Assembly (NCBI GenBank): GCA_040879145.1
Contig: JBBDKX010000035.1
Coordinates: 1,122 to 65,121, forward strand
DNA from: Candidatus Spechtbacterales bacterium
Lineage (GTDB): Bacteria > Patescibacteriota > Minisyncoccia > Spechtbacterales > 2-12-FULL-38-22
Reading direction: 5' to 3'
DNA length: 64,000 nucleotides
A program made the translations under genes and the position numbers. Below, piece by piece: positions 9,690-60,353 of the stretch. Position 1 is the first letter of the stretch. Each line of letters opens with the position of its first letter. The notes beneath the pieces were generated by a model. It did not search any database, had not been told where the DNA came from, and saw nothing but the letters and a program-made list of their open reading frames with translations.

Positions 9690-9727
9690 GTGTGTAGCCC
9701 GCTGTCATTTATGACAGCGGGCTTGCG

Positions 9728-9802
9728 TGCGCCCGGCTGGCTTTGAACCAGCGACCCCCACTTTATAAGAGTGGTGCTCTCACCAGACTGAGCTACGGGC
9801 GC
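9728..9802 (-). tRNA. tRNA-Ile (anticodon UAU)
   Basis: acceptor GCGCCCG/CGGGCGC, D-arm GCTCAGTCTGGTGAGAGC, anticodon stem CCACT/AGTGG loop CTTATAA (34-36 = TAT). Confidence 0.7.
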
Positions 9803-20145: not shown

Positions 20146-20216
20146 ACAATTGAATGGTTAAATGGCCAAATGGCTGGTAGAGATGGTAAAAACTTAACCA
20201 TTTAGCCATTTGGGAA
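20146..20216. repeat. AAATGGCTAAATGG-family palindromic element (copy 1)
   Basis: ggttaaatggccaaatggctgg ... ttaaccatttagccatttggg; overlaps proS stop; related copy at 26418..26498. Confidence 0.6.
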
Positions 20217-21438
20217 GATTATTGATTTTTATAATTTCCTCTTTATCTGAACTTCTTCTCTTTATCTCAAAACCCCCGGCTTTCAAACTGCGCTCGCTTA
20301 CAACTACACGCAACGGAATTCCTATAAGATCGGAGTCTGCAAACTTCTGTCCGGCTGAAATATCTTGCCTGTCATCATATAGCACTTCTGTGTTTTGAGC
20401 AAGCAGTTTTTCATATAATTTATCGGCATCTTTTTCACCTCCTGAAAGCGCGATAAGATGCACCTTGAAAGGCGCTATTTCATCGGGCCACACAATACCT
20501 TTACCATCGGAGAGTACCTCAACTATAGTTCCCATTAACCTGCCAAGCCCTATGCCATAACTCCCCATTACAACCGGGTGGTTTTCTCCTTTTTCATCCG
20601 AATACGTAAAGCCAATTGCGTCAGAAACTCGCGTCCCAATGGGGAATATATTTCCAATTTCAACAGATCGCTTTTCTTCCAGCTTATCCTTAACTAATCC
20701 CAGCTCCTCTATTGTTTCATCTGTAAACACCTCTTTGTTTATAGCAAGTTTTTTATCTTTATCAATAAAAATGGTGTCCTCTCCTGCCTCTGATAAAACC
20801 TGAAACTCATCCGACCAGGGGCCGAACACACTCCCGTCCGCGCGGGTTAAATATGTTTTTTCCTTCAAACCAACCCGATCCACGATATTAAAATAGGCTT
20901 TTTTGGCTTCTTCATAAAAATGCATGAGCTCATTTTCTGTTCGTGAAAATGAATACATGTCTTTCATAAAAAATTCTCTGCCTCTCATAATACCGCTCTT
21001 TGCTCTCAACTCGTTACGGAATTTTGTCTGAAACTGATACACAGAAAACGGCAAATCCTTATATGAAGAAGTATGGTTTTTTAACATCTCGGCAATCACT
21101 TCTTCGTGGCTAAAAGCAAGGCCGAGATCCGACCCGTTTTTTAGTTTTGTCTTAAACCAAACATCCACTTTTTCATCATCCCATTTGTCCGCTTTTTTCC
21201 AAATCTCAGAATCCTGTAGAGTGGTCATTTCTATTTCCTGTCCACCTATTGTATTCATTTCTTCACGAATAACCCTCTCTATTTTTTTTAACACGCGCAA
21301 ACCAAGAGGCAAATATGAATAAACGCCCGCCATTTCTTTATTTATAAATCCCCCACGAATTAAAAGTATCGCGTTTTTTGAAACCTCATCTTTTGGGGCT
21401 TCTTTCCTTGTTTTTGTAAATAGGTTTGACTGACGCAT
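20194..21438 (-). CDS. proS: prolyl-tRNA synthetase (short, no editing insertion)
   Basis: class II motifs, N-term MRQSNLFTKTRKEAP..., C-terminal anticodon-binding domain. Confidence 0.85.
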   Translation of the reverse strand: MRQSNLFTKTRKEAPKDEVSKNAILLIRGGFINKEMAGVYSYLPLGLRVLKKIERVIREEMNTIGGQEIEMTTLQDSEIWKKADKWDDEKVDVWFKTKLKNGSDLGLAFSHEEVIAEMLKNHTSSYKDLPFSVYQFQTKFRNELRAKSGIMRGREFFMKDMYSFSRTENELMHFYEEAKKAYFNIVDRVGLKEKTYLTRADGSVFGPWSDEFQVLSEAGEDTIFIDKDKKLAINKEVFTDETIEELGLVKDKLEEKRSVEIGNIFPIGTRVSDAIGFTYSDEKGENHPVVMGSYGIGLGRLMGTIVEVLSDGKGIVWPDEIAPFKVHLIALSGGEKDADKLYEKLLAQNTEVLYDDRQDISAGQKFADSDLIGIPLRVVVSERSLKAGGFEIKRRSSDKEEIIKINNLPKWLNG

Positions 21439-21440
21439 GG

Positions 21441-21478
21441 TTTTGTCCCGATACCACCCAAATCTTTGATTCGCTTGC
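21441..21478 (-). promoter_or_regulatory. conserved leader motif directly upstream of proS ATG (gcgaatcaaagatttgggtggtatcgggacaaaacc)
   Basis: near-identical motif precedes rpsK ATG at 34318..34356. Confidence 0.55.
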
Positions 21479-21557
21479 AGTATCGTGGATCCTCGACGCT
21501 ATAACAAAATCAAAGATTTTGATAGCGTCGGGATTCGCAAGCTCACAAAACAAGATT

Positions 21558-21650
21558 ACACTGATAACAACTGATACCACTGATGATTTTTACATGCATC
21601 AGCGTAATCAGCCATTATCTGTGATATCTAAGCGAGCGAAGCGAGCTTAA
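21558..21650. repeat. cactgatRa...gatgattttta repeat family copy 1
   Basis: similar to 31801..31895; ends in cgagcgaagcgagcttaa module. Confidence 0.55.
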
Positions 21651-22729
21651 AAAAATCTATTTATATCGTGTACTGTAATTAAAACTATTAGCAGTATCAG
21701 TAGCACAAAACCTGTAGCATGTGCCGCTGTCTCCACTTTACTGCTAACAGGGGAACCTTTTATCTTCTCTGCTACCAAAAAGGCGAATCTTCCGCCATCA
21801 AGCGCGGGGAAGGGAACTATGTTCAAAATACCGAGACTTAAAGATATTAGCGCTATAAATTGCAATACGTAGGTAAGCCCGAGGTCGCGAACGGTTCCTG
21901 TCATAATGGCTATGCCTACCGGACCCGAAATGTCTTCGGGTACGCTCCCATCAACTACAGCCTGTTTTACAGTACTGCCAAAAACACTTACCGAGGCGAC
22001 AGTGAGATTATATGTTGTCTTAGCTCCTTCAACTAATGCTGTGTGGGGTGGGTGTTGTATAACACCTATTCGTACCAAACTTATTCCTGTAGCTCCCTGA
22101 CCTTCCGGAATATCCTCGCGTGCCAAAATTGAAAACTCCAAAGTATCCTTACCTCGTTCTACTGTAAATAACAATGTTTCACCCGTGTGTCCAGATATAA
22201 AATCGGATACTTCGCCGGCAGATTGAGCTGATGTAACACTCTCCCCTGCTTGAATACTTAAAATTTTGTCTCCCGTTAAAATACCCGCGCTCTCAGCGGG
22301 AGAGTCCTTCACAACACTTATTATCTGAACCGCTACATCTTTGACATTGGAAGGGGTTTCTTCGTCTCCTATTATTGTGGGAGCGCCTATCATGTGGACT
22401 GCTGAAAAGAAGACGTACGCTACCAAAAAATTCATTACAACACCTGCAACTATGACCAGAGATTTTTTCCAAAAAGGTCTGCCCGCAAAACTGCGCGGAT
22501 CATTCCTGTCTTTGCCGTCCTCTCCGTGTATCTTTACGAAGCCCCCTATCGGAAATAAATTAAAGGTATATGTTGTCTCCCCTTTTTTTATTCCAAAAAG
22601 CTTTGGAGGAAATCCAAAACCAAACTCATCCACGCGCATTCCACTCTTTTTAGCCACGATAAAATGACCAAACTCATGAGTCAGGACTACAATTCCCAGT
22701 ATTAATATAAATAGTAATATTGTTAACAT
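21647..22729 (-). CDS. rseP: RIP metalloprotease RseP (site-2 protease, M50 with PDZ)
   Basis: HEFGHFIVAK HExxH in TM, PDZ domain, LDGG motif. Confidence 0.85.
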   Translation of the reverse strand: MLTILLFILILGIVVLTHEFGHFIVAKKSGMRVDEFGFGFPPKLFGIKKGETTYTFNLFPIGGFVKIHGEDGKDRNDPRSFAGRPFWKKSLVIVAGVVMNFLVAYVFFSAVHMIGAPTIIGDEETPSNVKDVAVQIISVVKDSPAESAGILTGDKILSIQAGESVTSAQSAGEVSDFISGHTGETLLFTVERGKDTLEFSILAREDIPEGQGATGISLVRIGVIQHPPHTALVEGAKTTYNLTVASVSVFGSTVKQAVVDGSVPEDISGPVGIAIMTGTVRDLGLTYVLQFIALISLSLGILNIVPFPALDGGRFAFLVAEKIKGSPVSSKVETAAHATGFVLLILLIVLITVHDINRFF

Positions 22730-22764
22730 TTTTAGGTTTTAGGTTTTAGGTTTTAGGTTTTAAG
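22730..22764. repeat. tandem aggtttt x5 immediately upstream of rseP start
   Basis: tttttaggttttaggttttaggttttaggtttt. Confidence 0.7.
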
Positions 22765-22793
22765 TGTAATACCTAACCCCTAATACCTAGAAC

Positions 22794-23342
22794 CTACTGC
22801 TCAAGTATCTCCCTCTCTCGCCCATCAATAGCTTCTTCTACTTTTTTGTTATACGCGTTTATCATATCCTGCAGAGCTTCTTTCTGTTTAAACTTCTCGT
22901 CTTCGGATATTTCTTTATTTTTTTCGGCGTCATCCAAGTCCTTAAGCGCTTCTTCTCTTATATTTCTCATACTTATGCGCGCGCTCTCGCCAAATTTATG
23001 AGCCTCTTTCGCAAGCTCTTTCCTTCTCTCTTCTGTAACAGGCGGCAAAGTAATACGAATAGAGTTACCTTCAACAACAGGATTAACATTCATGTCCGAC
23101 TGCCTTATCGCGTTTTGCACAGCGCCCACAAGAGCGGCGTCCCATGGCTGTATCAAAATCTGATTATTTTGCGGTATACTCACAGATGCCACCTGTTGCA
23201 GAGGCATTTTTGAATCATAAGCATCCACGGGAATATCTTCTACCATTCCCGCGTTAGCGCGCCCGACACGAAGACTTTTTAAATCTCCTGCCAGAACTTC
23301 CATCGTTTTTTCTAATTTTGGACTTATATCACTATTTTGCAT
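22794..23342 (-). CDS. frr: ribosome recycling factor
   Basis: Frr-family sequence, 182 aa. Confidence 0.85.
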   Translation of the reverse strand: MQNSDISPKLEKTMEVLAGDLKSLRVGRANAGMVEDIPVDAYDSKMPLQQVASVSIPQNNQILIQPWDAALVGAVQNAIRQSDMNVNPVVEGNSIRITLPPVTEERRKELAKEAHKFGESARISMRNIREEALKDLDDAEKNKEISEDEKFKQKEALQDMINAYNKKVEEAIDGREREILEQ

Positions 23343-24192: not shown

Positions 24193-24296
24193 TTAATACA
24201 TAATATACTTTATACAGCAATTTTTAAATGTTCCACTGCACCTACCTGTATGCCAATTGAAACATGAACCGGCAGGCAGGGTGAAACATTTAAAAA

Positions 24297-25158: not shown

Positions 25159-25212
25159 GGCGAGGAGCGGAATAAGACGTAGATGACAACTACGTTGTTG
25201 AGCACCGCAGCC
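25159..25212. repeat. ggaataagacgtagatRAYAACTACGTYGTT-core repeat copy 1 (flank modules swapped relative to copy 2)
   Basis: cf. 44049..44104. Confidence 0.55.
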
Positions 25213-25245
25213 GCTGACAAAGAAATAAGCGAAAAGATAAAGCCA

Positions 25246-26415
25246 CTATGCCACCTCCCACTCGTGCGCCAATATACGCTTTAGCACCCTCTTAAATTCA
25301 TTTTGAAACCTCTCGGTATTATATCTATTTCCTATATTTCTCATCATTACGGGATTATATCCCTCATAGTTGTTCACAAGACGCCTTACACCATCAGCCA
25401 AAACTGCCGGATGCAAGTCATCAAAAAACTCCCCGCTTACACCTTCCACAACACTCTCAAGTACCCCTCCCGCGCGGTAAGCTAAAACGGGCTTGCCAAA
25501 AATCATAGCTTCTACAGCGGATATGCCAAAATCTTCACGACCCGGATATATATAAGCAAAACAGTTCTCATATGCGTACTGCACAATATCATCAGGCTGA
25601 CGTCCAAGAAAAATAACATTATTGGAAGCCAGTTTTTCAAGCTCTTTTTTCTCCGGACCATCACCAATAACCACTAAAGGATACTTCATTCTACTGAATG
25701 CCTCTACGGCAATATCTATGTTTTTATAATCCTGAAGCTGTGAGACTATCAAAAAATACTTTTCAGGCAACTCTGCAAGAATACTTTTTTTGTGCATAGC
25801 ATCAGAACGCTGTCCGTTTTCCAGGAGTTCTAAACTCGCGCACGGATAAACAACAAAAGAATCTTTATTGTAATATTTTTTAATACGCTGCTTTGTGTTT
25901 TTGGAATTTGCTATAAAATAATCCACACGCGCCGCCGCATTAAAATCCCAAAGCCTGAAAAAGTGCAGAGTCATTTTTTCCAGTATGTGTTTTATAATGC
26001 CGTCCCTTTTTCGCCTCTTCTCTTCTTTAAATTCCCAAAGATGTTTCGTGGGTGTGTGGCAGTAACTTATATGTATGGTATCAGGGCTTGTAATTACCCC
26101 CTTTGCAAAAAAGGCGGAGGATGAAATTACAATGTCATATTTTTGAAGATCAAAATTCTCCATAGCAGGTATGGCTAATGGCGCCAAATAACGAAACCTG
26201 GAATGTAATTTTTTAGGAAACTTTTGCAAAAAAGATGTGCGAATATCGGCTGCCGGAAAATAAATATCAGCAAGTTCCGGGTCGCTAAAAAGAGTATATA
26301 TAGGCGCTTTTGGAAAAATACTATGCAACACACGTAAAACACGTTCGGCTCCGCCAAACTGTGTCATATAATCGTGCACTAATGCGACTTTTAACTTGTT
26401 GTTAGTTTGGTTCAC
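25246..26415 (-). CDS. glycosyltransferase family 4 (GT-B, group 1)
   Basis: C-terminal EGFGxxxxEAMxxGxPVV-type motif (ISAVEAMIFGKPVLAY, GGVLESVVEG). Confidence 0.8.
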   Translation of the reverse strand: MNQTNNKLKVALVHDYMTQFGGAERVLRVLHSIFPKAPIYTLFSDPELADIYFPAADIRTSFLQKFPKKLHSRFRYLAPLAIPAMENFDLQKYDIVISSSAFFAKGVITSPDTIHISYCHTPTKHLWEFKEEKRRKRDGIIKHILEKMTLHFFRLWDFNAAARVDYFIANSKNTKQRIKKYYNKDSFVVYPCASLELLENGQRSDAMHKKSILAELPEKYFLIVSQLQDYKNIDIAVEAFSRMKYPLVVIGDGPEKKELEKLASNNVIFLGRQPDDIVQYAYENCFAYIYPGREDFGISAVEAMIFGKPVLAYRAGGVLESVVEGVSGEFFDDLHPAVLADGVRRLVNNYEGYNPVMMRNIGNRYNTERFQNEFKRVLKRILAHEWEVA

Positions 26416-26417
26416 AA

Positions 26418-26498
26418 AAAATAAATGGCTAAATGGTTAATTGTTAAATGGTTAATTATTTTTTACCAGCCATTTAGCCGTATAGCCATTTAACTATT
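26418..26498. repeat. AAATGGCTAAATGG-family palindromic element (copy 2)
   Basis: aaatggctaaatggttaattgttaaatggttaatt ... ccagccatttagccgtatagccatttaac. Confidence 0.6.
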
Positions 26499-27541: not shown

Positions 27542-27662
27542 TTTTTAATTTAAAATTTTAATTGAATGCCTTAATTTATAATGTTTTAACCTGCCTGCCC
27601 GCTCCGCCGAGGAAGCGAGGCGAGCCGGCAGGCAGGTAGGAATTAAATAATTTGAAATTGTT

Positions 27663-30743: not shown

Positions 30744-30764
30744 GATATTTTATTCACTTTGTTC

Positions 30765-30894
30765 ATAAAAAGTATAGAGTATGCAGTATACAATATACAG
30801 GAGTGCTTTGTAATTAGCTTTGCTGAATACTCTATACTATATACTCTATACTTGAACGAGCGCGAAGCGTGAGTTTTAAGCTCGCTTCGCGAGT
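30765..30894. repeat. ~120-bp palindromic intergenic repeat, family A copy 1
   Basis: agtatagagtatgcagtatacaatatacaggagtgctttgtaattagctttgctgaatactctatactatatactctatacttgaacgagcgcgaagcgtgag. Confidence 0.8.
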
Positions 30895-31407: not shown

Positions 31408-31819
31408 CTATTAATCTCTTCATTCTGCCTTTTCTTAGGCGGTTGTCAGGCAACATTCTCTCAACGGCTTTTCTTATAACCCATGTAGGGTCCTTTTCGA
31501 ACATCTCCTCATATGTCTTGCCATAAATTCCGCCTGGATACCCTGAATAATGCCAGTAGATCTTGTCGGTCTTTTTCTTTCCTGTCACCTTGACCTTCTT
31601 GGCATTAACAACTTTGACGACGGTATCATCATCCATATTAGGCTTATAAGCAGGGCTGTGTTTTCCCTGCAAATATACAGCTATTTCCGTAGAAAGGCGT
31701 CCCAAAATCTGCCCCTTGGCATCCAGTTCAATAACCTCTTTCTTGCTTTCTGTTTTTTTTGAGGTTTTAGTTGTTATTTTCTTTTTACTCATATTTTTGA
31801 TTACACTATTTGATTGCAC
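31397..31819 (-). CDS. rplM: 50S ribosomal protein L13
   Basis: GQILGRLSTEIAVYLQGKH...PGGIYGKT. Confidence 0.95.
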   Translation of the reverse strand: MQSNSVIKNMSKKKITTKTSKKTESKKEVIELDAKGQILGRLSTEIAVYLQGKHSPAYKPNMDDDTVVKVVNAKKVKVTGKKKTDKIYWHYSGYPGGIYGKTYEEMFEKDPTWVIRKAVERMLPDNRLRKGRMKRLIVEK

Positions 31820-31895
31820 TGATGATAACTGATATCACTGATGATTTTTATCTGCTATCTGCGAAATCAGCTATTATCAGTGAAATCTGAAGCCT
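31801..31895. repeat. cactgatRa...gatgattttta repeat family copy 2
   Basis: cactgatgataactgatatcactgatgatttttatctgctatctgcgaaatcagctattatcagtg. Confidence 0.55.
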
Positions 31896-33048: not shown

Positions 33049-33219
33049 ATTTTTTATTTCCTACCTGCGTCGCATTTTGCAACACGGCAGGCAGGCGCTT
33101 CGCTCACATAACCGCTGATATATGCTAATTTTGCGGATTTTATGCAGATAGTATCCGCATTAATCTGCTTTAATCCGTATTAATCCGCGGTTTAAGCGAA
33201 GCGTTAGTGAGCTTAATTA

Positions 33220-33711
33220 TTATCGTGAATAAAACTCTATAACTGTTTGAAAATTAAACGGCTGTATTTGTTCTTTAATATCAGGTAAAGATTTTACCTT
33301 TAACTCCTTTTTCTTTTTATCTAAAACCAACCATGATGGAGGATTGAGGTTCTTTACTCTTATCTCGTAATCGGCAAATATTCCCTTTACAGCGCTTGTT
33401 TCTTTGACTGTTATAATATCGCCAGGGCGCACCTGATAAGATGCTATGGTAACCTTCTTTCCGTTTACTTGCATATGCCCATGGCTTATAAGCTGCCTTG
33501 CCATCCGCCGTGTTGGCGTGAATCCTCCCGCAAAAACAATGCTATCCAGACGAAATTCAAGTAAAGAAAAGATATTTTCGGGCTTTTGTCCCTTATCAAA
33601 ATACCGCCTGAATTGCTTTTCGCGCAACCCATACTCTTCGCGGATTTTCTGTTTTTCCGCAAGCTGTAAACCGTACTCTGATTTTTGTCTTGGTCTTCCT
33701 CCTTTTGCCAT
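33220..33711 (-). CDS. rpsD: 30S ribosomal protein S4 (short form)
   Basis: S4 domain RLDSIVFAGGFTPTRRMARQLISHGHMQVNGKKV. Confidence 0.9.
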   Translation of the reverse strand: MAKGGRPRQKSEYGLQLAEKQKIREEYGLREKQFRRYFDKGQKPENIFSLLEFRLDSIVFAGGFTPTRRMARQLISHGHMQVNGKKVTIASYQVRPGDIITVKETSAVKGIFADYEIRVKNLNPPSWLVLDKKKKELKVKSLPDIKEQIQPFNFQTVIEFYSR

Positions 33712-33809
33712 AATAATTATTTGTGGCTAAGCCCTTTGGGCCGCCATCCCGGCCGTTAGGCCTAGGGACTTCACTCACAAATTTAGGATTTAGGAATTAG
33801 GAGATAGGA

Positions 33810-33862
33810 GTTAGCTTTTTTTACGTTTTCTAATTCCTATTTCCTAAGCCCTAATTCCTGCG
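33810..33862. repeat. tttttttacgttttctaattcctaWttYctaa...ttcctgcgagc repeat (copy 1)
   Basis: cf. 34487..34545. Confidence 0.6.
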
Positions 33863-33874
33863 AGCTTTAGTGAG

Positions 33875-34312
33875 TTATACTCTTCTTCTTTTAGCCGGCC
33901 TGCATCCATTGTGGGGCAGTGGCGTAACATCTTTAATTGCAGTAACATTCAACCCTTTGCCCGTTAAAGCTCTGACAGAAGAATCTCTGCCGGCCCCTAT
34001 CCCTGTAACATAGATATGCACCTCTTTCATGTCAACATTTTCCAATTTACTTAAAAGTATGTCTACAACCTGTGTCGCGGCATACGGAGTAGCCTTTCTC
34101 GGTCCCTTAAAGCCCGCGGCACCCGCAGTTGACCACGCCAAAACATTGCCGTCCTGGTCTGAAGCGGTAAGCATTGTATTGTTGTAACTTGCGCGCACAT
34201 AAATATTCCCTCGTTCAACTATACGAGCTTTCTTTTTATTCTTGGCTTTCTGAGCGTCCGTTTTGGATGCCTGATCGCCTGCTTCAACTATTGCTACACG
34301 TTTTTTACCCAT
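33875..34312 (-). CDS. rpsK: 30S ribosomal protein S11 with Lys-rich N-terminal extension
   Basis: S11 family core; C-terminal region GIGAGRDSSVRAL. Confidence 0.95.
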   Translation of the reverse strand: MGKKRVAIVEAGDQASKTDAQKAKNKKKARIVERGNIYVRASYNNTMLTASDQDGNVLAWSTAGAAGFKGPRKATPYAATQVVDILLSKLENVDMKEVHIYVTGIGAGRDSSVRALTGKGLNVTAIKDVTPLPHNGCRPAKRRRV

Positions 34313-34317
34313 AATTT

Positions 34318-34356
34318 TTTGTCCCGATACCGCCCGAATCTTTGATTCGCCTGCCT
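34318..34356 (-). promoter_or_regulatory. conserved leader motif directly upstream of rpsK ATG (gcgaatcaaagattcgggcggtatcgggacaaaaaatt)
   Basis: same motif as upstream of proS; preceded by CCTGCCTGCC hairpin. Confidence 0.55.
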
Positions 34357-34486
34357 GCCGGTTTACATGCCGATTGGCATGCAGGCAGGCTCACAAAAAG
34401 TGAACAGTAAGCAGTGAACAATTAACAACAGGGCTCCGTTTTTTCTTTTCTACTGTTTCCTGTTCACTGTTTACTGTTATCTGCGA

Positions 34487-34545
34487 GCTTTAGTTTTTTT
34501 ACGTTTTCTAATTCCTAATTTCTAATTCCTAATTCCTGCGAGCCT
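34487..34545. repeat. tttttttacgttttctaattcc... repeat (copy 2)
   Basis: gagctttagtttttttacgttttctaattcctaatttctaattcctaattcctgcgagc. Confidence 0.6.
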
Positions 34546-34615
34546 GTCTGCGTGCGTTCACCTGTCTGCCGTGCTTGCGGCACAGGTAGACGCACAGGCA
34601 GGCGTTAGTGAGCTA

Positions 34616-35005
34616 TTAAGTTGCGGATGGGGGCGGTTTTCTTCCCGATCCCACTGTGGTTCTTTTATTTCCGCGAACTGTCCTGGAATTAACACGCGTC
34701 CTCTGTCCACGGACGGGAAGTCCTTTCTGGTGTCTTGAACCCCTGTATGTACCTATATCTTTAAGACGCTTTACGTTCTCACGAACATCTCTCCTTAAAT
34801 CACCTTCTATCAAATGTCCTTCAGATATGGCGTTCCTAAGTTGGTTAAGCTGATCGCCTGTAAGATCCTTTATTCTTATGTTTTCGTCTATGCCTGCATC
34901 CTTAAGTATCTTGCGACTCAAAGTACGCCCTATGCCATGCACATAAGTAAGGGCAATAACTACTCTTTTATTGTCCGGAATCTCAACTCCTGCTATTCTT
35001 GCCAT
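34616..35005 (-). CDS. rpsM: 30S ribosomal protein S13
   Basis: [10 protein letters not shown]...[25 protein letters not shown]. Confidence 0.95.
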
Positions 35006-35011
35006 AATGAT

Positions 35012-35129
35012 TTTATCCTTGCCTTTGTTTATGCTTCGGATTTGTTTTGCATATCACATAAACACGGCCCTTCCTACGAACAACCTTGCATTGATTGCAT
35101 ATTTTTTTTACCGAAGCTCTAACTTTCAT
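35012..35129 (-). pseudogene. rpmJ: 50S ribosomal protein L36 gene with 1-nt frameshift at A8 tract (as sequenced)
   Basis: my translation: [10 protein letters not shown] then +1 frame [28 protein letters not shown]; 118 nt = 39 codons + 1. Confidence 0.7.
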
Positions 35130-35141
35130 AATTTAGGTCCT

Positions 35142-35363
35142 TTATTTAAAACGATAAACAATTCTACCTCTGCTTTCACCCTCGGAAGGTATTTCTATTT
35201 TAACCCTGTCACCGACCAAAATACGTATCCTGTGTATTCTCATTTTCCCGGATACATATGATAGTACTTCACGCCCGTCCTCCAGCTCTACACGAAACAG
35301 GGTGTTTGGGAATGCTTCTAAAACAACCCCTTCTATACTTTCTATATTATTGTTTTGTGCCAT
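35142..35363 (-). CDS. infA: translation initiation factor IF-1
   Basis: S1-like OB fold, EGVVLEAFPNTLFRVELEDGREVLSYVSGKMR. Confidence 0.95.
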   Translation of the reverse strand: MAQNNNIESIEGVVLEAFPNTLFRVELEDGREVLSYVSGKMRIHRIRILVGDRVKIEIPSEGESRGRIVYRFK

Positions 35364-35631
35364 AAAGTGACTATGTTGAACTCAAATCTATTAAACTCAG
35401 ACCTCTACAATGATAACAAAATAAAAAAAATAGGTCAACCCCCACACCAATTTATGGGATTTCTTAGCTACTATAATGAAATTATTGACGGTATAACAAA
35501 TTGGTAGTGGGGGTCAACCCCTATTTTTAATAGGTCCCTAGGCCTTTGGCTGGTGGCTAGGCGTAAAGCCGCCATCCCGGCTCTGCCTAGGGAGATCCCG
35601 GCCCGCCCGCGCGGGTCTAGGGACTTCGCTT

Positions 35632-35742
35632 CACGAAAAGTACAAAGTATACAGTATTTGATATGCAGGGGTGCTTTATAATTAGCTTTGCTTAATACTA
35701 TATACTGCATACTGTATACTTGAACGAGCGAAGCGAGCTTAA
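35632..35742. repeat. family A palindromic intergenic repeat copy 2
   Basis: cacgaaaagtacaaagtatacagtatttgatatgcaggggtgctttataattagctttgcttaatactatatactgcatactgtatacttgaacgagcgaagcgagc. Confidence 0.8.
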
Positions 35743-42907: not shown

Positions 42908-43002
42908 ACTTATAGTTTACCAAAACAAAAGCCGGCTCCAAAGAGCACAAAAATACACAGGTTCAACCTGTGTATTTTACACAAACTAAAAACCGGCTCT
43001 TT

Positions 43003-43043
43003 AGAGCCGGCCACGACCGTAGTGTAATGTCAGATTGAAAATA
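43003..43043. repeat. cacgaccgtRgtgtaatgtcagattgaa direct repeat copy 1
   Basis: cf. 43860..43918; flank gene 43078..43791. Confidence 0.65.
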
Positions 43044-43072
43044 AAAAACAGACCTTCCGAAGGTCTGTTTTA
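43040..43072. terminator. bidirectional terminator
   Basis: aaaaaacagaccttccgaaggtctgtttta. Confidence 0.7.
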
Positions 43073-43077
43073 AAGAA

Positions 43078-43791
43078 CTAATTCGTTTCCGGTTCAATTT
43101 GCAGCTTCACACATGCTTTATCATACACGGCAGCAACTAAGCGACCGATAAGAGTTTTCCTTAACCTCGGCCATGCTTTTACTATCAAAGTGATAATAAA
43201 GGCCAACAAAGGCAAGCCGACAAAAGCTACAGCGCCCAAAGTAAGCAGCAGAGAACGCCAAGACTCAGCTGTCTGAGGAAGGAACGGTCCTTCGGCTTCA
43301 ACAAATAATCCTTCTGTAACGCCTTTGTATATAAGATAGGGAATAGCCACCACTAAAATAAGTATTGCGGGTAGCCACCAAGATAAAAACGCCACCAATT
43401 TCCAGTAAGTAGGGCAAATCCGAACTTCTTCGGGCACATCTTTAATAAATACTGTCCAGCCGCTATCGGTTACAATTTCTTTGTCCGGAGTGTAATTCTG
43501 GATAATCTTATACAGCCATGAACCCCTTGGCACCTGCCCTTTTTCGTTCAAAACGAAAAAAGTAGCAAATAGTAAAGCAACAGCCGGTATAAGCAGTAAC
43601 ACAACGACGACAACTGCAGCGAATAGCTTAGATCTAATATCTTCTATAAACAGAGGATCGCCGGGAAAATAACTATCATCAGCACCAACATACCTTGTCG
43701 GATGCCAATTCTGCCACAACCAAATAATTCCCACGTTTAAGAGCGCTATAAAGCCAACAAGCGATAATCTTGATTTGATCATTCCATTCAT
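43078..43791 (-). CDS. hypothetical polytopic membrane protein
   Basis: several hydrophobic helices; ORF track. Confidence 0.5.
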   Translation of the reverse strand: MNGMIKSRLSLVGFIALLNVGIIWLWQNWHPTRYVGADDSYFPGDPLFIEDIRSKLFAAVVVVVLLLIPAVALLFATFFVLNEKGQVPRGSWLYKIIQNYTPDKEIVTDSGWTVFIKDVPEEVRICPTYWKLVAFLSWWLPAILILVVAIPYLIYKGVTEGLFVEAEGPFLPQTAESWRSLLLTLGAVAFVGLPLLAFIITLIVKAWPRLRKTLIGRLVAAVYDKACVKLQIEPETN

Positions 43792-43859
43792 TCCATTTCC
43801 TTTCTGTCAAAGTAACTGCCGAAATTCTAACACAAAACATATAGTACGTCAATTTTTTC

Positions 43860-43918
43860 TAACCACAATCTGACATTACACCACGACCGTGGTGTAATGT
43901 CAGATTGAACAAAATAAA
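43860..43918. repeat. direct repeat copy 2, here as a perfect palindrome caatctgacattacacc-acgaccgt-ggtgtaatgtcagattg
   Basis: sequence comparison with 43003..43043. Confidence 0.65.
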
Positions 43919-44048: not shown

Positions 44049-44104
44049 GGCCGAGCACCGGAATAAGACGTAGATAATAACTACGTCGTTGAGGAGCGCA
44101 GGCC
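44049..44104. repeat. ggaataagacgtagat...ctacgtcgtt repeat copy 2
   Basis: cf. 25159..25212. Confidence 0.55.
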
Positions 44105-44137
44105 ACAACACAGTAGTGCGTCAAATTTTAAAGTTCC

Positions 44138-47724: not shown

Positions 47725-47766
47725 GATTTTTGTTTCGCCTGCCTGCCGGCAGGCAGGGCTCCGCCT

Positions 47767-47895
47767 CACGAAAAGTATAAAGTATACAGTATTCAGTATA
47801 TAGGAGTGCTTTATAATTAGCTTTGCTTAATACTATATACTAAATACTGTATACTTGAACGAGCGAAAGGTGAGTTCCAAGCTCGCTTTGCGAGC
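47767..47895. repeat. family A palindromic intergenic repeat copy 3
   Basis: cacgaaaagtataaagtatacagtattcagtatataggagtgctttataattagctttgcttaatactatatactaaatactgtatacttgaacgagcgaaaggtgag. Confidence 0.8.
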
Positions 47896-49140: not shown

Positions 49141-49240
49141 CTTCGCGAGCAGGTTATAGGTTTTAGATTTCAGGTATCAGACTATCGCTTAATTTTTGAG
49201 TCTAACACCTATTACCTAACACCTATTACCTATCTTATAA
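49141..49240. repeat. aggttttag / taggtatcag / acacctattacctaac x2 leader repeat
   Basis: related segments at 22730..22800 and 60115..60195. Confidence 0.5.
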
Positions 49241-52937: not shown

Positions 52938-53012
52938 GCCGGTTCATTTTAGCCGGTCGGACTCTTTCTTCCGACCCCTTTACTTCCAACCTTACTATAA
53001 GTCCTATTCTTC
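52938..53012 (-). promoter_or_regulatory. promoter-like module with TA(A/T)AAT box, hairpin ggtcggaagaaaNagtccgacc and ATAGGAC 9-bp repeats, upstream of secD
   Basis: near-identical module at 53715..53813 upstream of ssrA. Confidence 0.5.
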
Positions 53013-53285: not shown

Positions 53286-53643
53286 TGGTGGAGGTGCCGG
53301 GAATTGAACCCGGGTCCGGCGTAATATTCATAAGCGTTTTAGTTTACGTGCGTTGACTCCGTAAAATTTCGGAAGGGTTATACAGAGACAGATTCACCTT
53401 TCCTATCCGTTGTTCAGTGTCCCTTGCAAAGCACTTCGGAAAAAGCTTTGCTTCGGCAAGCACTCTGGTTCTTCTTAGCTTAGAATGCGTGGGCTAAGAA
53501 GCTGGTTGCTCTTTCAGGCGGCAGCCAGGAGGCCTCTGCTATTTGTGGCAGTTATATGTTTCCAGCGACGGTTTACGAGCACACGCTGGTTTCTCGGCAC
53601 GAGTTCTTAGTTTCAACGACACCGTCGAGACCAATTCACCCCC
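53286..53643 (-). ncRNA. ssrA: tmRNA (SsrA), one-piece, CCA encoded
   Basis: 5' GGGGGUGAAUUGGUCUCGACG..., 3' ...GGACCCGGGUUCAAUUCCCGGCACCUCCACCA; acceptor stem pairs. Confidence 0.9.
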
Positions 53644-53714: not shown

Positions 53715-53813
53715 TCAGTTGCCGGTTCATTATAGCCGGTCGGACTATTTCTTCCGACCCCTTTACTTCCAATCATCCTATAGGTCCTATTCGTCCTATA
53801 GGTCCTATTCTTC
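53715..53813 (-). promoter_or_regulatory. promoter-like module (TATAAT box + hairpin) with four ATAGGAC 9-bp tandem repeats, ~95 nt upstream of tmRNA 5' end
   Basis: ggaagtaaaggggtcggaagaaatagtccgaccggctataatgaaccggc; gaataggacctataggacgaataggacctataggat. Confidence 0.5.
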
Positions 53814-57733: not shown

Positions 57734-57795
57734 ACGGGTCACTGCACCTGCCTGCGCCGAGTGAAGCGCGGCAGGCAGGGTGACCCGCTTTTTTA
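57734..57795 (+). terminator. rho-independent terminator
   Basis: cgggtcactgcacctgcctgcgccgagtgaagcgcggcaggcagggtgacccg + T7. Confidence 0.8.
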
Positions 57796-59232: not shown

Positions 59233-59252
59233 AGATTTTGTTCGCTAACGCT

Positions 59253-59385
59253 CACGAAAAGTATAAAGTATTCAGTATACAGGGGGTGCTTTGTAATTAG
59301 ATTTGCTGAATACTCTATACTATATACTGCATACTTGAACGAGCGTGAAACATAAGTTCTAAGCTTGCATGGCGAAGCGTCCGCT
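59253..59385. repeat. family A palindromic intergenic repeat copy 4
   Basis: cacgaaaagtataaagtattcagtatacagggggtgctttgtaattagatttgctgaatactctatactatatactgcatacttgaacgagcgtgaaac. Confidence 0.8.
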
Positions 59386-60195: not shown

Positions 60196-60353
60196 GCTAT
60201 GCAAGCCTATTTATATGTTATCACTAAAACAGGTACATTCCAAATCAATTGCCGGTACTAACCCAAAAAAGGCTCAAATGAGCCTTTTTAAATGTTTCAA
60301 CCTACCTACGCCAATGCTTCGGCAGGCAGGCGCCGTGCCTCATGTTGAAACGT

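Follow-up and report, generated by a model that had tools for sequence, protein, structure and literature searches.

Short palindromic repeats of enterobacteria and pseudomonads, namely REP (repetitive extragenic palindromic) elements and the bacterial interspersed mosaic elements (BIME), occupy intergenic regions as mosaics of modules, often lie inside operons and are co-transcribed, as set out in passages of PMC3333891 and PMC2817692. The Correia elements (CREE) of Neisseria and the ERIC, RUP and BOX sequences, which resemble miniature inverted-repeat transposable elements (MITEs), are described in parts of PMC2649163 and PMC3184786 as co-transcribed elements that alter the expression of adjacent genes and whose long hairpins are possible RNase III substrates. 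Upstream regions reused within one genome were described as putative mobile promoters by Nijveen, Matus-Garcia and van Passel in 2012 (PMC3575422). Here, we describe a 34-nucleotide (nt) motif, GCGAATCAAAGATTYGGGYGGTATCGGGACAAAA, that lies directly upstream of the start codons of two unrelated genes, proS and rpsK, in a 64,000-nt stretch (hereafter the window; positions 1,122 to 65,121 of contig JBBDKX010000035.1, assembly GCA_040879145.1) from the metagenome-assembled genome (MAG) of a Candidatus Spechtbacterales bacterium. The motif is a derived tail, common to the two loci, of a dispersed modular repeat that we call the cassette.

Results

Two copies of the motif and the cassettes that carry them

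Exactly two occurrences of the motif, both on the minus strand, were present in the window, and the pattern with up to three mismatches likewise returned just two copies, against 0.00 expected from 100 shuffles of the 64 kb. The copies are identical at 32/34 positions, both mismatches being T/C, and their homology runs 4 nt further on the 5′ side, to 38 nt at 92% identity (repeat family D16). Hamming scans of the halves and the core, together with a local-alignment scan, revealed no partial copies above the shuffled background in the window. An initial annotation of the window had described one copy before each gene, and the pattern scan recovered both at these sites, although the span 34318-34356 that it gave for the rpsK copy was one or two bases off (34317-34350). 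Its identification of the two genes agreed with the matches to TIGR00409 for prolyl-tRNA synthetase (ProRS) and TIGR03632 for ribosomal protein uS11 (S11). The copies and the genes around them are as follows.

20194-21438, minus strand: proS, ProRS of 414 amino acids (aa) without the INS domain (TIGR00409, 396 bits), downstream of copy 1
21441-21474, minus strand: motif copy 1 (34 nt), separated from the proS ATG at 21438 by 2 nt (CC)
21647-22729, minus strand (the same as proS): RseP gene, upstream of proS
33875-34312, minus strand: rpsK, uS11 of 145 aa (TIGR03632), downstream of copy 2
34317-34350, minus strand: motif copy 2 (34 nt), separated from the rpsK ATG at 34312 by 4 nt (AATT)
34616-35005, minus strand (the same as rpsK): rpsM, upstream of rpsK

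Both copies proved to be the ATG-proximal tail of a repeated modular cassette, in agreement with one proposal of the initial annotation, that the motif is the 3′ terminus of a mobile repeat. The order of parts is stop codon, CTCAC, a palindrome of 7-nt word arrays, the closer TTTTGTGAGC, optional GC hairpins, an A-rich tail and the ATG. CTCAC (or GCTCGC) lies 0-5 nt past the upstream stop codon, and each arm of the palindrome repeats a word of 7 nt (sometimes 8-10 nt) in tandem, as detected by Tandem Repeats Finder. GTGAG closes the palindrome in a closer of the form (T)TTTGTGAGC(GAAGCG), also written (T)TTTNGTGAGC, and the generic A-rich tail, GCGAA(N)CAAAAAT, runs into the downstream ATG. 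Predicted folds show one long hairpin from just past the stop codon to the closer, with the added modules forming self-contained hairpins. The parts of the two cassettes, from the upstream gene towards the ATG, are listed below.

21551-21646, minus strand: proS array palindrome of CACTGATRA words, beginning directly past the RseP stop codon
21541-21550, minus strand: closer TTTTGTGAGC of the proS cassette, the 3′ side of its long array-built palindrome, recurring in at least six other cassettes
21475-21540, minus strand: proS-specific module between closer and motif, consisting of TT, GCGAATC and a 57-nt segment
21465-21474, minus strand: GCGAATCAAA, 5′ part of the generic tail in copy 1
21446-21464, minus strand: GATTTGGGTGGTATCGGGA, private insertion of copy 1
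21441-21445, minus strand: CAAAA, A-rich generic end of copy 1
34399-34615, minus strand: composite 5′ part of the rpsK cassette, in which the rpsM stop is followed by CTCAC and a GC hairpin, then by an AGGAATT array that is truncated and an ACAGTRA array palindrome that is complete
34389-34398, minus strand: closer TTTTGTGAGC of the rpsK cassette
34351-34388, minus strand: rpsK-specific module of 38 nt, a REP-like GC hairpin, CTGCCTGCATGCCAATCGGCATGTAAACCGGCAGGCAG, of the CCTGCCTGCC/GGCAGGCAGG word family
34341-34350, minus strand: GCGAATCAAA, 5′ part of the generic tail in copy 2
34322-34340, minus strand: GATTCGGGCGGTATCGGGA, private insertion of copy 2
34317-34321, minus strand: CAAAA, A-rich generic end of copy 2

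The modules between closer and motif are non-homologous in the two cassettes. Within the 57-nt segment of the proS cassette are a near-perfect hairpin, CCGACGCTATCAAAATC-TTT-GATTTTGTTATAGCGTCG, and CCACGATACTGC, for which pairing with GGTGGTATCGGG of the motif is possible; GCGAATC stands as a direct repeat on either side of the segment and is the sole candidate duplication found. The right arm of the proS array matches the array before rplM (31812-31855; D15) at 86% identity, and the truncated AGGAATT half-array of the rpsK gap matches the one before rpsD (D5) at 92%. Homology between the motif copies begins within the 3′ arm of the GC hairpin (GCAG vs GCAA). The private insertion opens with GATTYG, an inverted copy of the preceding CGAATC, giving a predicted 6-bp hairpin with an AAA loop, and one of the two mismatches between the copies exchanges G-U for G-C in this small helix, so that pairing is kept. 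The palindrome AATCTTTGATT, to which the initial annotation had drawn attention, is present in both copies and occurs a third time at the apex of the proS hairpin. For the region from −15 to +12, the predicted mean probability of being unpaired was 0.64-0.73 in the motif copies, compared with 0.92 and 0.77 in plain cassettes.

No Rfam family matched either gap even at E ≤ 10, and the whole window at the gathering threshold yielded only tRNAs and transfer-messenger RNA (tmRNA); the models covered in both searches included those of r-protein leaders and riboswitches. A consensus scan detected no sigma-70-like promoter on the gene strand of either gap at its threshold. Two other accounts of the motif were rejected. 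An N-terminal coding extension does not fit, because both open reading frames (ORFs) are already open at the first start codon past the preceding in-frame stop, and the spacers of 2 and 4 nt put the motif in different frames relative to the ATGs. The resemblance of GTGGGATCGGGAAGAAAACC to GTGGTATCGGGACAAAACC, which would derive the motif from the 3′ end of rpsM, is put down to chance: it scored 23 in local alignment, within the shuffled maxima of 20-27.

Sister cassettes in the window

Cassettes fill at least nine gaps in the window. After the closers at 47774, 59260, 33108 and 33783 the tail is shorter and reads GCGAA(N)CAAAA(N)AT(N)-ATG.

33049-33108, minus strand: sister tail upstream of rpoA, ATGTGAGCGAAGCG, GC hairpin, AAATAAAAAAT, ATG
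33712-33783, minus strand: sister tail upstream of rpsD, TTGTGAGTGAAG, structured module, ACAAATAATTATT, ATG
47725-47774, minus strand: sister tail without the insertion, TTTTCGTGAGG, GC hairpin, GCGAAACAAAAATC, ATG of a VirD4/TrwB-like ATPase gene
59233-59260, minus strand: sister tail without the insertion, TTTTCGTGAGCGTTAGCGAACAAAATCT (tail, GCGAACAAAATCT), ATG of an HhH-GPD glycosylase gene

The initial annotation had proposed the position relative to start codons as a check on the motif. Examined on the parent cassette only, the tails do adjoin start codons, but the 5′ ends equally adjoin stop codons, because the cassette fills the whole gap. A degenerate copy lies at 30753, before a small basic ORF, and the cassette at 35639 (35621-35738) is the only one whose tail does not adjoin a start codon. 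The family-4 glycosyltransferase gene at 25246-26415 apparently starts with a GTG inside the closer TTTTTGTGAAC (26410-26420), with no spacer and no Shine-Dalgarno (SD) sequence, which suggests that the closer can sit at or very near a translation start.

Four of the cassettes in the window share a 112-nt body (family D1; TATACT type, loop CAAAGCTAATTAYAAAGCAC) at 61-89% identity, and palindromes whose arms consist of 3-5 tandem word copies occur in approximately 13 intergenic gaps. The array words vary from gap to gap (TTTTAGG, TAAATGGT, AGTATAC, ATCCGCATTA, TTAGGAG, TACTGTT, CTAATTC, CTAACAC and CACTGATRA) while the CTCAC/GTGAG closers are constant. The GC hairpins form a further family, CCTGCCTGCC/GGCAGGCAGG; with up to one mismatch, GGCAGGCAGG gave 24 matches against 2.5 expected, mostly as inverted intergenic pairs. 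These modules are combined differently from gap to gap, as a mosaic.

30753-30864, 35621-35732, 47756-47867 and 59236-59347, all minus strand: 112-nt family, upstream of unrelated genes
22730-22796, 26422-26455, 30771-30852, 31817-31845, 33153-33188 and 33783-33814: array palindromes
34451-34537, 35702-35720, 47772-47855, 49202-49233 and 59258-59335: further array palindromes
1796-1836, 24271-24280, 27590-27640, 33086-33095, 34350-34389, 47738-47757, 57747-57779 and 60321-60330: GC hairpin family

The gap at 35006-35738, from a 607-aa ORF to rpsM, holds a cassette followed by a structured GC-rich module, two promoter-like stretches containing TTGACC, infA and rpmJ; the last two genes fall below the 80-aa ORF cutoff. 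Two-copy intergenic repeats outside the cassette family were seen at 25161-25242 and 44052-44133 (73%) and at 43011-43048 and 43881-43918 (89%), the latter pair being part of hairpins near 43000-43900. A 75-nt direct repeat (52938-53012 and 53721-53795; 91% identical) flanks the tmRNA gene at 53286-53643 and could be an integration or duplication scar.

Orthologous sites in relatives and public collections

Contigs of close relatives were drawn from the 90% cluster of S11, the window protein being MEX0877941.1. In three of these contigs (L008, L009 and L010) S11 is 97.3% identical in aa and 93.2% in DNA, and S13 is 96.9% identical. Their rpsM-rpsK gap of 126 nt is one plain cassette, TAA-ACTCAC..(ACAAG arrays)..TTTT(G/A)TGAGCGAAGCGAAACAAAAATATT-ATG, and rpsK in this relative is preceded only by GCGAAACAAAAATATT-ATG. 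A more distant contig, L007 (S11 92% in aa), has no cassette at this site and a gap of 14 nt; the corresponding gap of the window measures 303 nt. The homologues of ProRS were all from Paceibacteria/Spechtbacterales, with a top identity of 73% (L011), where the RseP-proS gap is 25 nt vs 208 nt in the window. The RRF-RseP-proS-mreB synteny is kept in L001 and L004 (ProRS 69%) and in L005 (67%), in which the region upstream of proS is unrelated sequence with a −10-like box near the ATG and contains neither the motif nor the closer. The motif was found upstream of proS in none of L001, L004, L005 and L011, and upstream of rpsK in none of L007 to L010.

Exact-pattern scans likewise gave zero matches, both for AAAGATTNGGGNGGTATCGGGAC in the GTDB representative genomes and JGI metagenomes and for GATTNGGGNGGTATCGGGAC in IMG/VR. 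The description of the leader as conserved therefore does not hold, since close relatives lack the motif at their orthologous sites, and a shared translational operator, another proposal of the initial annotation, is not supported, given the absence of the motif from the rpsK site of the relative with 97% identical S11 and from proS of four relatives, and the lack of matches in the scans. Alignment of the tails showed that the window rpsK and proS leaders equal the generic GCGAA-N-CAAA...AAAA(T)-ATG plus about 19-22 nt of extra sequence, GATTYGGGYGGTATCGGGA(C). This insertion was seen nowhere else, and window rpsK and L008 differ by the GC hairpin and an indel of approximately 22 nt.

For the plain tail, TGAGCGAAGCGAAMMAAAAWT, true matches in the GTDB and JGI scan were confined to one JGI metagenome (L021 and L036), which is also the source of L008, and the other matches were single chance matches in unrelated taxa. 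In L021 (rpsH-rplF-rplR-rpsE), near-identical cassettes, each ending in GCGAACAAAAATT-ATG, occupy all gaps over their full length, stop codon to ATG. Filled gaps in the organism of L008 are rpmJ?/rpsM, rpsM/rpsK, rpsK/rpsD, rpsH/rplF, rplF/rplR and rplR/rpsE, and all ribosomal-operon gaps sampled in L008 (1-1358) and L021 (1-2663), both of JGI metagenome 3300031965, hold a cassette of approximately 120 nt, giving at least seven near-identical cassettes in this close relative. At the corresponding places, L007, L069, L070 and L011 have compact operons with gaps of 5-31 nt.

From these comparisons, we conclude that the cassette family is limited to a narrow clade and that cassettes come and go at orthologous sites. 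They also evolve far faster than the flanking genes, because the array word at the rpsK site is ACAAG in the relative and different in the window, though rpsK DNA is 93% identical. The 34-nt variant itself is presumably younger than the split of the window organism from the L008 organism.

Initiation context

The initial annotation had stated that the motif replaces an SD sequence and contains no SD-like purine run. The second statement is essentially correct, the nearest candidates being GGGA 7-9 nt and GGGYGG 15-17 nt upstream of each ATG, but the first does not describe a special property, as SD-like pairing of −6 kcal/mol or lower was reached by only 15/44 window genes (with an assumed generic anti-SD tail, which may not be that of the host). 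Many window genes lack any purine run; A/T-rich sequence precedes the genes, in several cases with a TATAAT-like box 10-20 nt from the ATG. With the same generic anti-SD, the duplex energies were −9.2 kcal/mol for proS and −5.5 kcal/mol for rpsK, through bulged pairings further upstream. An SD-less start is the norm in this genome and is not special to proS and rpsK, since the absence of an SD from most window genes means that it does not single out these two. The GGGA of the insertion is a weak SD at best.

Two observations on the translation apparatus stand apart from the cassettes. The rpsD ORF (33220-33711, 163 aa) covers only positions 35-200 of the bacterial S4 model, and a short S4 is also present in L007 (162 aa), so that the lineage seems to be without the N-terminal segment of approximately 35 aa. 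A tRNA-Ile with the anticodon TAT (UAU) was located by ARAGORN at 9727-9802; bacteria usually read AUA with a lysidine-modified CAU tRNA, and a UAU tRNA-Ile is uncommon among them.

Discussion

We consider it fairly probable that the motif is a variant tail, young and private to this lineage, from the start-codon side of the cassette, a modular palindromic intergenic repeat, and that this tail was copied between loci. The variant would have arisen after the split from the relative whose rpsK is 93% identical in DNA, and most likely it was copied recently from one cassette to the other, across 13 kb, by patchy recombination, gene conversion or transposition. The position at which the homology starts, inside an arm of the GC hairpin, points to patchy recombination or gene conversion and not to clean transposition, with an rpsK-like donor probable. 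The host gaps belong to operons whose counterparts in relatives are compact, so the cassettes would be transcribed as intercistronic RNA within the RseP-proS and rpsM-rpsK operon mRNAs. Their hairpins would fold on themselves, and the A-rich, mostly unpaired tail would serve as an SD-poor ribosome landing site for the next cistron. An insertion of more than 100 nt in a coupled operon would be tolerable only with a usable initiation region, a requirement that would account for both the polarity of the cassettes and the conservation of an A-rich end beside the ATG. As for the private insertion, its contribution would be a 6-bp hairpin plus a weak GGGA at SD distance, its effect is probably neutral or mildly modulatory, and a gene-specific shared operator is unlikely.

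Several points weigh against this interpretation. The data comprise 64 kb of one MAG with n = 2 copies of the 34-nt variant and have no power for covariation, and the 32/34 identity beside unrelated hairpin modules could reflect selection on the motif and not recency. Both host genes are translation-related, and no transposase, including RAYT/Y1, was present among the proteins scanned in the 64-kb window. The effects on transcription, processing and translation are deduced from sequence and predicted folds, and the SD energies depend on an assumed generic anti-SD. A bolder interpretation is possible but doubtful. According to this, the cassettes are a previously undescribed class of polar intercistronic elements in Patescibacteria, each a self-folding stop-to-start insertion, such that SD-less re-initiation and coupling survive an insertion of 100-300 nt and the 19-nt insertion is a functional tuning module. 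The folded hairpin would bring the terminating ribosome to approximately 15 nt from the next AUG, translational coupling would thus persist in essential ribosomal-protein operons, and the 7-nt word arrays in the arms would turn over extremely fast.

The near-identity of the copies despite unrelated adjacent modules, their constant place 2-4 nt from the ATG, the membership of both ProRS and S11 in the translation apparatus and the mismatch that keeps the small hairpin (G-U vs G-C) would all suit a shared cis-regulatory RNA operator, at which a trans-acting protein or small RNA would bind CGAAUC-AAA-GAUUYG and/or GGGYGGUAUCGGGAC by the start codon and co-regulate translation of the two proteins. 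We nevertheless judge this to be unlikely, considering that the orthologous rpsK site of the relative with 97% identical S11 has a plain tail, that the motif is missing upstream of proS in all relatives examined, and that neither the GTDB, JGI metagenome and IMG/VR scans nor Rfam produced a match. The sequences flanking the insertion are also a generic repeat tail found before the VirD4-like ATPase and DNA glycosylase genes, and two copies offer no covariation support. Improbable, too, is the opposite extreme, that the motif is pure debris of error-prone repeat recombination, neutral and near start codons only since cassettes span the gap. This account differs from the interpretation that we favour only by denying a generic initiation role; it fits the lineage-private occurrence in two copies, the patchy homology boundaries, the stop codons adjoined by the 5′ ends of cassettes and the plain tail with which the close relative manages, but a sequence 2-4 nt from the start of an essential gene is inevitably within the translation initiation region, and the A-rich ends, unpaired in the predicted fold, are kept in both copies.

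At the DNA level, the 34 nt could be a promoter-proximal element or transcription start region, that is, the whole 5′ untranslated region or an operator for a regulator recognizing AATC-N3-GATT. Reuse of upstream regions before unrelated genes has a precedent (PMC3575422), a weak TTGTTA-17-GATACT (8/12, read by eye) ends 5 nt before the proS copy, and the proS gap has two occurrences of the palindrome AATCNNNGATT, the rpsK gap one. However, the hexamer pair is below threshold, with nothing comparable upstream of the rpsK copy, the consensus scan found no sigma-70-like site on the gene strand of either gap, and operons with gaps of 14 and 25 nt in relatives leave an internal promoter unneeded. 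We also rejected AATCNNNGATT as an over-represented operator half-site, since its four matches were equalled in 17/100 shuffles and are not above chance, and the DNA-level explanation as a whole is quite improbable. Least credible, and very improbable, is an element of proS related to tRNA(Pro), either a degenerate T-box or an anticodon-arm mimic (UU-UGG-GU / UU-CGG-GC) bound by ProRS, like the thrS operator of Escherichia coli. The downstream gene does encode an aminoacyl-tRNA synthetase, the proS copy (UUUGGGU) and the rpsK copy (UUCGGGC) both contain proline anticodons, CCACGAUACUGC of the proS leader can pair with GGUGGUAUCGGG, and UGGGUGGUAUCGGG of the proS copy agrees at 11/14 positions with the T-box sequence AGGGUGGNACCGCG. 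The Rfam and structure checks largely refuted the idea: neither RF00230 nor any other Rfam model matched at E ≤ 10, a Stem I and a specifier loop are both missing, the upstream helices being the array palindrome and a near-perfect hairpin with no internal loop, and the bases of the would-be anticodon belong to the predicted 6-bp helix and not to a 7-nt loop. Moreover, the rpsK copy has CGGU and not UGGU, with C replacing the U that would pair with A76 of the tRNA, such an element makes no sense for rpsK, and the motif is missing upstream of proS in relatives.

The motif alone is therefore minor, a young two-copy duplicate that does not merit an entry among conserved leaders or riboswitch candidates, and the cassette family is the more noteworthy. 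Patescibacteria genomes are normally compact; this one tolerates structured repeats of 100-300 nt in nearly every essential ribosomal-operon gap, in a single orientation and with the A-rich tail at the next start codon. The family offers natural experiments on translation re-initiation past an intercistronic insertion in SD-poor bacteria and on the turnover rate of intergenic repeats relative to genes. It also calls for caution with MAGs, in which motifs common to the upstream regions of unrelated genes are often the termini of repeats.

Comparison with known systems

SD-independent A-rich initiation regions are described for Bacteroidota and for initiation dependent on ribosomal protein S1. 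The cassette tail resembles them in its last 6-12 nt before the ATG, which are A-rich and predicted to be unpaired, and in a genome where most window genes are without an SD; this is, however, a trait of the whole genome and of the generic tail, whereas the private insertion is G-rich and partly structured. T-boxes (RF00230) differ in their covariance-model match, Stem I and specifier loop, of which the gaps have none. Autoregulatory leaders of r-proteins find no counterpart either, given that there is no Rfam match and that the motif is missing at rpsK of L007 and L008-L010. TIGR-Tas arrays were considered and set aside, as they are tandem arrays beside a tas gene and not dispersed intercistronic palindromes.

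Like the putative mobile promoters, the motif is a similar upstream sequence before non-homologous genes of one genome. In contrast to them, the shared piece is 38 nt plus the 10-nt closer, lies within operons and contains no recognizable promoter, and what the cassette shares is the part of the intercistronic spacer proximal to translation initiation. The likeness to Correia elements and to the MITE-like ERIC, RUP and BOX sequences is closer: these, too, are non-coding, approximately 100-150 nt long, of inverted-repeat structure and adjacent to genes. As in MITEs, the cassette is dispersed in many copies (at least nine in 64 kb, and only two for the 34-nt variant), and both empty and filled orthologous sites were found for the rpsM-rpsK and RseP-proS gaps. 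The arms of the cassette are, by contrast, hypervariable word arrays, and its ends have no promoter-like hexamers. With respect to terminal repeats, CTCAC and GTGAG close the palindrome with the tail outside it, and no consistent duplication flanks the cassettes.

In a short and limited literature search, no account of elements of this kind in Patescibacteria was found. With REP/BIME the cassettes have in common that they are short palindromic intergenic repeats built as mosaics of modules, present in multiple copies and placed within operons, where they would be co-transcribed, and the GC-rich hairpin family of the window, CCTGCCTGCC..GGCAGGCAGG, is used as one such module. They differ in that the cassette body is an A/T-rich palindrome of tandem 7-nt words that vary by copy while the closers are constant, and in that the cassette is polar, with its conserved A-rich tail towards the downstream ATG, and fills the gap from stop to start. 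The kinship of the cassettes with REP/BIME and with Correia/MITE elements is thus one of analogy only, in architecture and placement, with no shared sequence.

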